From positions 1-17,857 of the forward strand of contig CBDDTI010000228.1 of assembly GCA_965233585.1 (NCBI GenBank): DNA of 17,857 bases. Reading direction: 5' to 3'. This DNA comes from a bacterium. GTDB lineage: Bacteria > SAR324 > NAC60-12. A program made the position numbers and the translations under genes. The notes beneath the pieces were generated by a model. It was given only the letters and a program-made list of their open reading frames with translations. It made no database searches and was not told where the DNA came from. The stretch's first letter is position 1; every line of letters starts with the position of its first letter. This document shows positions 2,380 through 8,300 of this stretch, piece by piece.

Positions 2380-5300
2380 TTATTTACAAATAGGGCATTT
2401 AGATGATTTGTTGTTGACAATAACACAATTTCCTAATGATAAAGTGTGATATCCGCAATTTAAAATGTGTCTTTTGGAATCCATTGCTGATAACGCAATC
2501 TTTCTTTGAAAACATGTCCGAATTTTATGATTTTTTGATCTTAAGTTTTTGAAAGATTTGTAAATTAGAACAGCCTGTTTCAAACATTTTTTGTAATCGT
2601 TATAGGTTAATTGCTTTTTTATGCTAGATTTTTTTAAACCTTTGCAAATTTTCTTTTCTTCCGTTTTGTTTTTGTCTGAAAAATCAGTAATTTTCATAGA
2701 ATAACATTTTGGACGTAAGCCTATAAAATGAGTAATAGCTGCTCTGCCTTTTAGTTCGTCTTTGAAGTAAAAAAGCTGATTGGCTCTACTGTCATCAAAA
2801 AGAGGATGTTGTTTGGGGTACTTTGAAAAATCAAATATGTGCTCCAATTTTTTCATTTCCCTTTCCAAGTTGTTGCATCTTACTTTTAAAAGAAAAGAAT
2901 CTGTGTCTGAGAAACATAAAGACACATTTTCTTCGCCAAAATGTTGTTGAATTGTGTCATAATACGATCTGTACATAAACAACTTGGACAATTCCAAAAT
3001 AGAAAATCCAACAGCTAAAGGCTTCCTGAGCTCTATTATTGCCGGCTTCTTGTTGACAGCCACCAAGTTTTCATTGATGATTTGAAAACTGTTGATGTGT
3101 TGACCAAGACTGGTTTTCCTTAAGCTCTGTTCATCACCACAAAGGATCACTTCAGAGTAATTTCGAACATTTTCTGAAATGCAGAATAAGATTTATTTAA
3201 TAAAGAAAATTGATTATGTGCGCAATCACCTCAGCTAACTAGCCGTCCCATATCACATTTCATTTTCCTCTGTAATTAGCAATGTACTATAATTTACTTC
3301 AATTTGAAATCATTCCTTTTTTAAAGCCCGACCTAAACGGACATCAAAAATTCCAACAAAATCAACACTAAGTCAAAATGGATAAAAAAGATCAGGAAAA
3401 GAGCAAAGCTTTTTGGTTAAAAGTAATAGAATCAGCCCAGGAGGAGGAAACTTCAAGTCCGACTTCTGGCAGTAGCTCTACCGGGGCTGCGGCTGGGGGA
3501 GCATGGTCATCTACTAAAACTGAGGGAGGATGGTCATCTTCTGGGGCTGTGGGTGGAGGATCATGGACATCTTCCGAGCGTCCCGTGGCACCTGCTTGGC
3601 CATCACGGACTCCGTACAAGTCCGTCCCACGAAAATCAGGGTCGGAGTCATGGAAGAGCGCATCTACTGCTGGGGTCGGGGGCGGAGAAGCATGGTCATC
3701 CACTAAAACCGGAGGAGCATGGTCATCTTCTGCGGCCTTGGGTGGGGAATCATGGTCATCTTCCGAACGTTCCGTAGCACCTGCTTGGCCATCACGGACC
3801 CCGTACAAGTCCGTCCCACAAAAATCAGAGCCGGAGTCGTGGAAGAGCGCATCTACTGTCGGAGCCGGGAGTGGGGGAGCATGGTCATCTACTAAAACTG
3901 GAGGAGCATGGTCATCTTCTGGGGCTGTGGGCGGAGGAGCATGGTCATCTGCTAAAAATGAGGGGGAATGGTCATCCACTAAAACTGCAGGAGCATGGTC
4001 ATCTTCCGCGGCCTTGGGTGGGGGATCATGGTCATCTTCTGAACGCTCCGTGGCACCTGCTTGGCCATCACGGACCCCGTATAAGTCCGTCCCACAAAAA
4101 TCAGAGCCGGAGTCGTGGAAGAGCACATCTACTACCGGTGCTGGGGGCGGGGGAGCATGGTCATCTTCTAAAACTGGAGGAGCATGGACATCTTCTGGGG
4201 CTGTGGGCGGAGGAGCATGGTCATCTGCTAAAACTGGGGGGGCATGGTCATCTACTAAAACTGGAGGAGCATGGTCATCTTCTGCGGCTTTGGGTGGAGA
4301 ATCATGGCCATCTTCTGAGCGACCCGTAGCACCCGCTTGGCCATCACGAACCCCGTACAAATCCGTTCCACAAAGGTCGGAGTCGGAGTCACGAAAGCAG
4401 ACCTCTCATCGCGTGTCATTTGATTTGTCTTCACAATCAACACAAAAATCTAAACCAGCGCCCTATCGTCACGTGGAACCTTCACCAACACCGGAAGTGC
4501 GTCAAGTAACGGCATTTCCATCGGTGTGGTCTCCGTCTACAGCTCGAAAAGTTACAAAAAAAAATTAAAATTTAAATTTGATCATTTTTCTTTTTTCTTT
4601 TTGATTACAAAATAAACGCATTATTTTATAAAAATTGATTTTTCAAAAAATTGCGTACTTGATTAATTCATTTTGCGAATTTTAAATTTAATATTGATCT
4701 AATATTATGAATATTTATGAGATAATTTGCTAATTAAAATGTAAAGGTTTGGAGATTTATTTGCTAAAATTGACAAAACCATGCGGGAAAATTCAAAACA
4801 AAATTTAAAGAAGGAAGAGGAGAAGGAGAAGAAGGAAAAGGAAAATGAACAGGGTAAAGTTAGGAAGGATGAGGAGGGGGAAATACGAGGTGTTGAGGGC
4901 GAAATGGGTGGAAGAGGAGGAGGAGGAGAGGTTCAAGCTGCTGCCGGACCCGCCAGTGAGCGAGACACCACCGCGTGCACCACTGATGTGGGGCGGTGGC
5001 CGTCTTAGACGGTTTGCCAGAGGCTTGATCATGATGATCAGGACGGCCGCCGCCTCCGTCGCCGACTTTGTTGTTGGCCGTCCGGACGTCAACCCTGCTG
5101 ACGTCATCTTCGCCGACGTCATCCCCGCCGACGTCATCCCCACCGACGTCATCCCCGCCGACGTCATCCCCACCGATGTCATCCCCACCGACGTCACCCC
5201 CACTGACGTCATGCCCGTCGACGTCAGCCCCGCCAACGAAGCCGACATTGTTGAAGATGACGATTTTGATGAGGCTAAGTGTGTGGTTGGTGCCGGCAGG

Positions 5301-8300
5301 ACGTACTGCCGCAACTGTCGCCGGTACCACCACGCACTTGTGCCTCAAAATTAAAGAAAAATACAAAAAATGACCCCAAATTTGTTTGAGTATTTAACAA
5401 ATTCATTTTTTTACAGAATAATGGACCGCGTCAAATTACGCTTTTGCGTCTTTTACAATTCCAACATCATTAAATTATCTTATCTCAAAACTTACCAATA
5501 AATTTTCCAAAAGTAGAGTTGGCAAAAAGTTTAAAAAGCCGGAGTTCAAAATCATTGCGAGCATTTGATCGCAGCTTTGTAACCTTTTCGATGAACTCCT
5601 TCAAAAAAGCTTTTTGTCGAAACTTCATGACTTTTCTTATCTTCAGCAACTTCATGCCCTTTTTCAAGTAGTACTGCAGGTTTTCCAGATGCACCACGTA
5701 CTTTTTTCGGTCATAAAAAGTGCTCAACAATTTCTTGCTCCGGTATCTTTTGTTCCTATAATCTCGAGGGCAGTGATGTTTCAGTAAACGGCGATTGTAA
5801 GGAGATAGATGTTTAAAAGAAACCGTGTCTGTATAGGGAGCCAGCGGAAATTGATCGTGTGCCTGAAAATGATATCGTGTAACTTGTCAAAACAATAAAT
5901 AACGTATCACAACAAAGATCGGATTTACCTGATGAAGATGAGAAGGATAATGCAAATCAACTTCAAACGCATATCCAGTATCGTCTTGCGAAGGAATGTT
6001 GATAATATCTTCAGCAGTCCATTTTTTAAATTCAGTTTTTGGAACCCATTGGAAATCAGAAACTGGTAATTTTAAAGTTTCCATACTCCCGTATAAGTTG
6101 TTGGCTGAAAAATTGTACGGATCATAACAAAATGATTTATCAGATAATACAGTATAAAATTACCATCAATGTATAACAAGTGATCGCCGCTTTTTCTAGG
6201 ATTGCTATTCCCTTTGGCATAACGCTGAGCGATAAAACTTTGCCCACCTCTGATACCCTTTGTAAAAAAACGCTCCATTTCAGGATCAGAATAGACATCT
6301 AATGATCCGAGGGGTTTGGAGGTTTCAGATTCGGATGTGGGCTTATTATCTGATTTAGCTTGTTCTGAATTTTGAAAGAACATAAGCATGACATCAAAAC
6401 TCAAACCAGGAATTCCTATTTTAAGTAGACAAAATTTAATATCACAATACATCCAACGGTAAAGATTAAAATTTACCTAGATAATAAACAGGATCCAATT
6501 GAAAATGTTCCATGACCATTTTTCTGTACTGAAGAAATGCTTCACACAGCAAAACAACGTCTAAAGAACAATAGAGCATCATGTAATCCACCACATTCTT
6601 GCATTTGAACGATTTAAAGACTTCTTGAGCATGGGAATAATCCGCTTCTGTAATGTGTTCTTCGTTCAATTCAGAATAAAAAGAGTCTTTGGACGGAAGG
6701 TTTCGACTTTTCTTCATCTCTTGTAGAGATTGGAAATGTTCGTAACAAAAAACGCCTTTTCTTTTTAAAAGTTTTAAAGCTTTTGATTTTTGACGAACAG
6801 GAATTTTTTTATATCTTTCCATTTGTTGTAAAATGGGAAAGGTAAAATTTGAGGTCTGATTCAAATCTTGAACAAGTGCATCTAGACTGCCAGAAATGTG
6901 CTCTAACGAATCTTGAATTTTAAATTTGCCCAATGTAAGGGTGCGAAACTTTTCACTGTTTTTTGCTAAGACTTTTACATTATGCTTAAATTTGGAAACA
7001 TTTAACTCTTCCACGATTAAATGCAAATCGTATCTGAAACACGTACATAATTTGAGTTAGTTTAATAAGTAAACCCAATTAAGACTTCTTACCCTTGAGC
7101 GTTGTGGAAAAAAATCGGAGTGTGAAAGGGACCGGATCTCGTCAAGTTACACAGTGAATGAGCTGCGCCCATTATTTTCCCTGTTACGTGATCATGATCT
7201 AGAACTTTTCTGTAATTTCTAGAGTACTTTTTGAATTGACCACCACAAATATGACAAACTTTTGCTTTTTGATACATTTGCCATTCTTGCGGACTAGATT
7301 GATTTTTAACAATATGTCTGAATTTTTGTTTTCTTTCGTCAACAACTTTTTCATAAAAATGCATTCGATCCAAAAAATGTTTGGCTGCATCCTCTCCTAC
7401 ATATTCTTCTTGAAAAAATACCTCATCATTCGAATCCACAAAAAGCAAGCTATACCCCACTGGTCTATGCACGTTTATATCGTCACTGGTGGGAAAAGCA
7501 CACAAGCACTCAGTTTTTAAACAGAGTTGACATTTAGATCGTTCTTTGTTTCTTTGAAGTACACATTCAAAATCACAAAATCCAACAACAGGAGCATGAA
7601 ATTTATGTTTATGATTGGTAAAACTTATGGAGGAATTTTTACTTGGGTAGATAGCACGTTGTTTATCACAGCAAGTGTTTTCGTGTTTTTCTTTTTTAGA
7701 TTTGGATCGAAAATGAAGCAGACATTTTTCGCAATAGATGTGCTTCTGTTGAGCTGCTTTTTTACCCGACAACAGTCCGGCCCGATTATTCAAAAAACCT
7801 TGGATTTTGGTAATTTTAAAGAAATGGTGCTGTTGATTTAAATCCTTGATCTTTTTAAACTTGGAAGAAAAACCCCATTTGACATTAGAACTACAATTGA
7901 CAATCTTTTTACAAGAAGATTTTTTCTTGCGTTGAATTGGTTTTGCAAGGCGAGAAAATGGAGATTCATTTTCAAGAGAAATTTCAGGATCATATTTTAT
8001 CATTAACAAATTTAAAATGTTTTTGTTTCTGTTGTTGTTTTTATTAGTAAAAAAACCTAACTTTGAAACTTGACCTTCACTCTCATAAAAAACTGAAATT
8101 GAAATCGGTAAATGGGAGTTTCTATTTAAGAATTTTTTTAAATTACAAAATTGAAGAGGGAATTTGAAACCTCTTATATTAAACTTTTTAAGATACTTTA
8201 TCGGCATTTGACGAAAATCAACAACGGAAACCGTTTCCTCAGGAAAAAGATGTCTAATGTACAGATAAAGAAAATTGAATTTATCGTAACGAGTTTTCCA

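Follow-up and report, generated by a model that had tools for sequence, protein, structure and literature searches.

Accessory genes of Polintons, introns in Polinton-like elements and antisense genes nested inside host genes are each already known. In nematode Mavericks, accessory genes of high GC content and low conservation form a cargo region beside AT-richer core genes (Widen et al., bioRxiv 10.1101/2022.07.12.499685). In Drosophila, 2mit lies in an intron of timeless2, and intronic genes make up about 6% of the genes of D. melanogaster (PMC3786989). Polinton-like proviruses of dinoflagellates carry introners within their genes, which are described as short, transposon-generated and gene-free (PMC11957031). 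Here we describe a locus that resembles each of these systems in part. It lies on contig CBDDTI010000228.1 of an assembly filed under the bacterial lineage SAR324 (GCA_965233585.1), and the whole stretch of 17,857 nucleotides (nt) that was analysed is called the window below. In our judgement the window rather probably holds a Polinton/Maverick-like element, with an arthropod as its probable host, whose polymerase gene polB is split by five spliceosomal introns, and the established intron that follows polymerase motif B houses an antisense, lineage-restricted pair of accessory genes, which we call ORF1 and ORF2 after their open reading frames (ORFs).

Like the nematode cargo, the pair is GC-rich and little conserved and stands beside AT-richer core sequence. 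Unlike that cargo, it is intronic, antisense and itself intronless, and it encodes orphan low-complexity proteins; the core genes of the nematode Mavericks are reported to be intronless by Widen et al., whereas the core gene polB of the window has five introns. The nesting resembles that of 2mit in timeless2, in that a protein-coding gene of opposite orientation sits inside an intron of a larger gene (PMC3786989), but the host gene in the window is a replication gene of a mobile, virus-like element, and the nesting would therefore be copied with every new copy of the element. As in the dinoflagellate proviruses, introns lie within element genes, but the window intron has no transposon ends and holds two genes. 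The first-pass annotation of the window knew of no such arrangement in Polintons, and our search of the Polinton/Maverick literature, which covered mostly titles and abstracts, likewise yielded no published description of genes in a polB intron or of a Polinton-encoded Trp-repeat protein.

The polB gene was modelled by scanning the minus strand for GT-AG pairs that keep the reading frames open. The resulting six-exon model spans 3414 nt and has no internal stop codon. The gene, its introns and the two nested ORFs, with lengths in nt or amino acids (aa), are laid out as follows.

2380-8360, minus strand: split polymerase gene polB, six exons
8360-7093, minus strand: polB exon 1 (splice scan)
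7034-7092, minus strand: polB intron 1, 59 nt, GT-AG (splice scan)
7033-6477, minus strand: polB exon 2 (splice scan)
6416-6476, minus strand: polB intron 2, 61 nt, GT-AG (splice scan)
6415-6164, minus strand: polB exon 3 (splice scan)
6105-6163, minus strand: polB intron 3, 59 nt, GT-AG (splice scan)
6104-5929, minus strand: polB exon 4 (splice scan)
5863-5928, minus strand: polB intron 4, 66 nt, GT-AG (splice scan)
5496-5862, minus strand: polB exon 5, closing with motif B (...KLFANSTFGKFI), followed by one base of a Glu codon that intron 5 splits
3174-5495, minus strand: polB intron 5, 2322 nt, GTAAGT...TTTCAG, phase 1, containing the nested gene pair
2380-3173, minus strand: polB exon 6, the last, with motif C (FSDTDS) and the KxY motif
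3378-4568, plus strand: ORF1, 396 aa, wholly within intron 5
4845-5354, plus strand: ORF2, 169 aa, wholly within intron 5

The first-pass annotation had described a last polB intron directly after motif B, about 35 times longer than the others, with two GC-rich plus-strand ORFs of 396 and 169 aa between AT-rich spacers, and both the coordinates and the contrast in composition hold up. Intron 5 is 35-39 times as long as the other four introns (59-66 nt). The GC content is 54% in ORF1 and 60% in ORF2, compared with about 32-33% in the polB exons and with 31%, 22% and 28% in the spacers at 3174-3377, 4569-4844 and 5355-5495. ORF1 is GC-rich because of its amino-acid content (Gly, Ala, Ser, Pro and Trp), as seen from its GC content of 0.50, 0.74 and 0.39 at the first, second and third codon positions; its third positions (GC3) are AT-rich and nearer to those of the rest of the element (0.24-0.33). 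The two nested neighbours differ sharply from each other in codon usage, with a GC3 of 0.735 in ORF2 vs 0.39 in ORF1.

Protein-primed polymerases of family B are marked by motif B (K-x3-N-S-x-Y/F-G-K), motif C (DTDS) and a KxY motif. The window polB carries KLFANSTFGK as motif B and FSDTDS as motif C, and 20 relatives agree without exception at K163, N167, G171, K172, D263-T264-D265-S266, K329 and Y331. By these motifs, polB can be assigned to the protein-primed type of family B polymerases. The sequence libraries back this weakly. Exon 5 matches the Pfam family DNA_pol_B_2 (PF03175) with an E-value of 6.8e-5 and 22.4 bits, which is under the cut-off of 25.8, and none of the 20 relatives matched PF03175 at E ≤ 0.1, while relative P0050 bears a precomputed PF03175 label. 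The top match of the polB family profile in the PDB is the phi29 polymerase, at the motif B region and with a weak E-value of 0.12. Residues 354-409 of exon 1 (7093-8360) match Endonuclease_7/HNH in Pfam; an HNH insert is described by Jeong et al. 2023 (PMC10748475) as common only to oomycete and nematode pPolB2.

Homologues of the two nested ORFs point to a pair that evolves together. Contigs of identical size (16718, 16009 and 19756 nt) occur in the match lists of both ORF1 and ORF2, which suggests, if indirectly, that an ORF2 homologue lies on the contigs of three of the seven ORF1 homologues. Outside the window, the 185-aa protein P0147 combines both modules in one ORF: its N-terminal half is an ORF1-like Trp-repeat region (E 9e-16) and its C-terminal end is an ORF2-like Cys/His region (E 3e-13). 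Its relation to the separate genes would be explained either by the split of a single ancestral gene or by a deletion that joined two neighbours; under either origin, a distant relative must have had the two modules in the order and orientation seen here, and a joint function is suggested. Because P0147 fuses the two modules, ORF1 and ORF2 are probably a functional unit, and the sequences suggest that they evolve as a linked pair. The idea in the first-pass annotation that the ORFs are genes is borne out in this respect, by conserved homologues that appear to travel together.

Several observations weigh against assigning this pair to the gene set of the element, and would fit a unit of the host genome that moves or duplicates on its own and entered the polB intron in just a few copies, an explanation that we regard as unlikely. 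In addition to the overall composition (54-60% GC vs 32-33% in the element), the GC3 of ORF2 is unlike that of the rest of the element (0.28-0.32 in the polB exons), and the ORF2 homologue P0140 has other sequence downstream, a 102-residue tail without counterpart in the window. The numbers of copies do not agree either: there are 7 members for ORF1 and 27 for ORF2 vs about 169 member sequences in the polB exon-6 clusters at 83% identity or more (104 in P0008, 47 in P0009 and the rest in others), and hence most close polB copies may lack an intact cassette, or the assemblies may break at the repeats. No contig size is common to the ORF1 or ORF2 matches and the 120 listed polB matches, which is weak evidence because the polB table gives only the longest contig per 90% cluster (up to 104 members); many polB contigs are only 1-5 kb long. 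An independent unit is also at odds with the structure of the insert. No inverted repeats bracket 3174-5495, and its two flanks have no word longer than a 10-mer in common, a length equalled in 37 of 200 shuffles. Neither terminal inverted repeats nor the target-site duplications by which the first-pass annotation proposed to recognise an independent transposon were found at the insert ends. No transposase or other mobility gene was recognised by Pfam inside the cassette. Moreover, the intron flanks of the ORFs are conserved in the read-through parts of three homologues, which match the window outside the ORFs (P0001 from 3282, P0007 to 4612 and P0138 to 5379).

The first-pass annotation had also viewed the intron as a neutral landing site, implying that the genes were captured from elsewhere. 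This part of its proposal is not supported: the pair forms what appears from the searches to be a tiny, lineage-restricted orphan family without a nameable donor or transposon ends. Searches of ORF1 and ORF2 against Pfam returned nothing at E ≤ 0.01 or at E ≤ 10, and searches against PDB sequences returned nothing. The PHROGs gave a single weak match to a family of unknown function (E 0.002), and the protein Atlas gave no usable match for ORF1. A profile of ORF2 searched against 1.84 billion representatives retrieved 13 proteins at E ≤ 0.001, 8 of which were new. No paralogue of ORF1 or ORF2 was found elsewhere in the window. Paralogy between ORF1 and ORF2 themselves was considered and is not detectable (E 0.11).

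Intron 5 begins directly after motif B, and with GTAAGT and TTTCAG at its ends it gives the best fit to the pattern of the other four introns. Its excision joins the split codon G|AA to give ...NSTFGKFI-E-NVRNY.... We compared this junction with homologues of exon 6, of which there are 196 at E ≤ 0.001; the counts across the junction cover the 120 that were listed. Among these 120, 63 also match exon 5 and read ...NSTFGKFIE|NVRNY... as one ORF, and the alignments to the junction show that exon 5 stops at residue n while exon 6 begins at residue n+2, leaving the one residue (E) between them. The same kind of comparison backs the 66-nt intron upstream, as continuous relatives align to 5497-6084 in tblastn except for a gap of 66 nt. 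By its GT-AG ends and the restoration of the frame, the view that intron 5 is a genuine spliceosomal intron is supported.

The position of intron 5 is found in other copies as well. Seven relatives (P0015, P0018, P0024, P0052, P0064, P0071 and P0077; 59.7-90% identity) open with a prefix ...F(F/I)(S/T)E|N..., which is what in-frame read-through of a TTTCAG acceptor yields, and since this happens at the same codon in all seven, the intron is older than the window copy. For a tree of exon 6 we kept 57 sequences, taking 55% identity and 200 aligned residues as lower limits and leaving out all others of the 120. All five sequences with the intron signature, including the window, fall in one clade of 35 (SH-aLRT 99), together with 13 sequences that start at most 12 residues past the junction and 4 continuous ones. 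The sister clade of 22 consists of 21 continuous sequences and an uninformative one. At least three changes of intron state are required on this tree. Judged from these alignments, the intron position is a feature shared by a sub-lineage, with later losses or repeated gains, and not a lesion private to the window copy.

These data also bear on the suspicion that polB of the window copy was broken by a 2.3-kb insertion whose GT...AG ends are unused, which would make the gene a dead pseudogene and intron 5 an artefact of annotation. An intron of this length is certainly exceptional next to four of 59-66 nt. However, the insert exactly separates base 1 from base 2 of a single codon, so that no residue is lost or gained, its ends conform to those of the short introns, the six exons are all open across their whole length, and the acceptor is read through at the same codon in relatives down to 59.7% identity. 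We therefore consider a broken gene improbable and retain the view of a spliced, intron-bearing polB.

The length of ORF1 and ORF2 is by itself no proof that they are genes, because both consist mostly of tandem repeats and the DNA is open in other frames; with length being uninformative, their status as genes rests on homologues. The repeats and the other open frames in the nested DNA are listed here.

3500-4390, plus strand: tandem repeat array of ORF1, in frame, with units of 189 nt (63 codons) and 276 nt (92 codons) that contain 27-nt subunits (TRF and repeat families D1 and D2)
5085-5238, plus strand: tandem repeat of ORF2, 15 nt (5 codons), 10.3 copies, with a copy number that differs among relatives
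3392-4360, minus strand: other open frame, 322 aa
3871-4329, plus strand: other open frame
4805-5314, minus strand: other open frame
4860-5366, minus strand: other open frame

All seven homologues of ORF1 map to the plus strand. The one in P0001 is intact, with 83% identity over 100% of the query, and that in P0006 is also intact, with diverged repeats (AWGSSG units), and keeps the segments ...APAWPSRTPY.SVP... and, at the C-terminus, ...PEVRQVTAFPSVWSPSTA.KVTKK. For ORF2, 13 of 16 homologues are in a single frame, and 51 columns are invariant across 11 intact members. The eight new representatives from the profile search are 30-56% identical to the window ORF2, while their middle repeats are unrelated to it. 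Seven of them carry the C-terminal motif ..YDA.KCVVGS.RTYCRNCRRYHHALVP, and six of these seven also keep the helix ..SLIGRI.DAVA.LAR..TA; P0144, the remaining one, is limited to the N-terminal part. The pattern C-x8-C-x2-C-x3-H is retained in distant relatives of ORF2. Conserved ends and motifs around replaced middle repeats are, as far as sequences can tell, what selection on the protein yields. Other features count against coding. At least three of the seven ORF1 homologues (P0004, P0005 and P0007) mix frames in tblastn, as do P0002 and P0003 when inspected by eye, and 3 of the 16 ORF2 homologues do the same. The differences between the ORF1 repeat copies (22, 15 and 10 at codon positions 3, 2 and 1) represent only a weak excess at the third position (p = 0.098). 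That the GC-rich blocks are non-coding minisatellites expanded in the intron, with ORFs as by-products of stop-free repeats, would account for the largely repetitive ORFs, for DNA with three or four open frames across the two strands and for the frame switches of several ORF1 homologues, but is very improbable given that the non-repeat N- and C-terminal ends are conserved in frame while the number and sequence of the repeats vary, that ORF2 relatives of only 30-45% identity retain the Cys/His pattern and the helix, that so many ORF2 columns are invariant and that all repeat periods in the nested ORFs are multiples of 3. Taken with the homologues, both plus-strand ORFs are best described as conserved protein-coding genes rather than mere stop-free repeats.

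The following candidate signals surround the two genes.

4611-4616, plus strand: AATAAA, candidate poly(A) signal, 43 nt past the ORF1 stop codon, as already noticed in the first-pass annotation
4569-4844, plus strand: AT-rich inter-gene spacer, with TATAAA at 4627-4632 and an upstream ATG at 4781
5497-5502, plus strand: AATAAA, candidate poly(A) signal of ORF2, inside polB exon 5 and just beyond the donor site
5350, plus strand: ATTAAA, candidate poly(A) signal of ORF2 (motif scan)
5469, plus strand: ATTAAA, candidate poly(A) signal of ORF2 (motif scan)

A possible scheme of expression would be that the gene pair is transcribed from its own AT-rich promoter regions in the intron spacers (TATAAA at 4627), with polyadenylation of the ORF1 transcript at AATAAA 4611 and of the ORF2 transcript at ATTAAA 5350 or 5469, or at AATAAA 5497. 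The polB pre-mRNA would be transcribed through the cassette and then spliced. Because polB transcription would cross the cassette, the two directions may interfere with each other in the nucleus; the first-pass annotation had proposed that such opposing transcription could render PolB and the cargo mutually exclusive or give rise to double-stranded RNA. The spliced polB mRNA would have no sequence in common with the nested genes because they lie wholly inside the intron, and complementarity would exist only between the polB pre-mRNA and the cassette mRNAs, unless the ORF2 transcript reaches the AATAAA at 5497-5502 in exon 5. The ATG at 4781 (MRENSK...) is in frame with ORF2 in P0135, P0142, P0143 and P0144, whereas in the window it is located 64 nt upstream and out of frame; the start codon of ORF2 that is in use may differ between copies.

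The predicted ORF1 protein has an isoelectric point (pI) of 9.9 and contains 23.5% Ser, 12.9% Gly, 11.4% Ala and 6.8% Trp, with no Cys, one Met and one Ile. Its 27 Trp residues are spaced by 9-18 residues (about every 11 residues), each beside Ser, Gly or Ala, and its N- and C-terminal ends are non-repetitive. The Trp residues of P0006 recur regularly every 11 residues, and Gly follows 8 of the 11. ORF1 is thus a basic, Ser/Gly/Ala-rich protein that is probably disordered. The ORF2 protein (pI 5.0) has a basic and acidic N-terminal end, DVIPx repeats and a C-terminal KCVVGAGRTYCRNCRRYHHALVPQ Cys/His motif. In the AlphaFold2 model, which has a mean pLDDT of 51.9 (low confidence), there are one helix at 52-76 and a short hairpin over the Cys/His motif, and the predicted protein would be small and largely disordered apart from this helix and a Cys/His knuckle at its C-terminus.

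Among known classes of short motifs, the Argonaute-binding WG/GW domain fits ORF1 best, and we take this only as a lead. WG/GW domains are described as rich in Gly, Ser and Trp and poor in Cys, Phe, His, Met, Tyr, Leu and Ile, with only the Trp-Gly pair and the composition conserved (PMC2910046). Disordered multi-repeat Trp domains are reported to be bound by the PIWI domain through three Trp pockets (PMC12477606), and viral suppressors that use an Argonaute-binding hook exist, for example SPMMV P1 (PMC2904775). Like GW182/TNRC6, NRPE1, SPT5L and SPMMV P1, ORF1 has many Trp in a context of Gly, Ser and small residues and is depleted of the same residues: G+S+W make up 43.2% and C+F+H+M+Y+L+I make up 4.3%, which fits the composition of WG/GW domains. 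As in those domains, only the Trp residues and the overall composition are conserved between ORF1 relatives.

On this basis, a counter-silencing role can be proposed, tentatively and with low confidence. ORF1 would be a Trp-repeat decoy, a multivalent tryptophan 'hook' for Argonaute/PIWI-type proteins of the host with ORF2 as its partner, and together they would blunt small-RNA silencing, with the antisense nesting coupling their expression to polB transcription. This role is the weakest step of our reading as a whole. Unlike in WG/GW proteins, a strict GW or WG dipeptide contains just one of the 27 Trp of the window ORF1 (0 of 27 in P0001), most Trp in ORF1 being in A-W-S, and no Pfam match to the Argonaute-hook or any family was obtained even at E ≤ 10; ORF1 may nevertheless work in the manner of such a hook. 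P0006 has 9 strict dipeptides (8 WG and 1 GW) for its 11 Trp. Maelstrom is a factor of the pathway of PIWI-interacting RNAs. An insect pangenome preprint links Polintons to a gene named mael.

The left 14 kb of the window are AT-rich (about 27-41% GC), and the main features around polB and at the right edge are given below.

2-1195, minus strand: C2H2 zinc-finger ORF (Pfam), with an internal 96-nt duplication at 710-805 and 821-916
1198-1572, minus strand: small ORF (ORF list)
1621-2316, minus strand: ORF with weak A32/FtsK-type ATPase matches (Pox_A32 19.3 bits, cut-off 22.8; FtsK_SpoIIIE 16.4 bits, cut-off 24)
8404-9141, minus strand: second C2H2 zinc-finger ORF (Pfam)
16840-17856: ORF with rve and Integrase_H2C2 (Pfam), running off the window edge, within a block of about 50% GC

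The element is probably Polinton/Maverick-like, and its host is probably an arthropod because the Atlas clusters that resemble polB exon 1 are eukaryotic, 'commonest Arthropoda'. A scan of bacterial and archaeal genome contigs with the polB exon-6 and ORF2 alignments found no relative, as expected for a eukaryotic element. No capsid protein or adenain-type protease was recognised in the window by Pfam or PHROGs, libraries that may lack such families, and no terminal inverted repeat of the whole element was found in the window, which may not reach the element ends. Rfam at the gathering threshold and a tRNA scan gave no matches.

The block formed by the ATPase ORF and the polymerase is bracketed by the two C2H2 zinc-finger ORFs (2-1195 and 8404-9141). 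Farther right, a 107-nt tandem repeat (2.9 copies, 82% identical) at 10227-10533 lies between the divergent ORFs 9209-10243 (minus strand) and 10746-11509 (plus strand), and 12781-13482 (minus strand) is a 233-aa Thr/Ser-rich, mucin-like ORF with a hydrophobic N-terminus and a strong skew of G over C on the plus strand. The composition changes at 14566-15082, where there are two tandem copies of a 217-nt unit (97% identical) as well as inverted repeats of 35 nt (14585-14619 and 14866-14900); this may be an element boundary. The block 15048-17857 (about 47-60% GC) contains the only integrase ORF of the window, the one with rve and Integrase_H2C2, along with a CCHC-like ORF at 15973-16356 and a small ORF with a hydrophobic segment at 16357-16839. 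The integrase ORF looks more like that of a long terminal repeat (LTR) retroelement than like a Polinton's own integrase, and the block as a whole looks like an LTR retroelement that adjoins or was inserted into the AT-rich element.

The arrangement of two antisense genes inside a polB intron is, in our view, real, probably functional and moderately surprising. In animals whose Polintons/Mavericks contain introns, little work has addressed where the accessory genes sit and how they are expressed relative to the core genes. If a conserved gene pair does reside in the polB intron, the introns of mobile elements can serve as gene space that is copied at each transposition, and the locus would offer a natural example of replication and accessory functions that are coupled as sense and antisense. 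If ORF1 binds proteins of the Argonaute family, a DNA transposon would be countering small-RNA defence by a mimic of a host adaptor, and if the counter-silencing proposal is true, the element would carry a transposon-borne Argonaute-hook suppressor in an animal.

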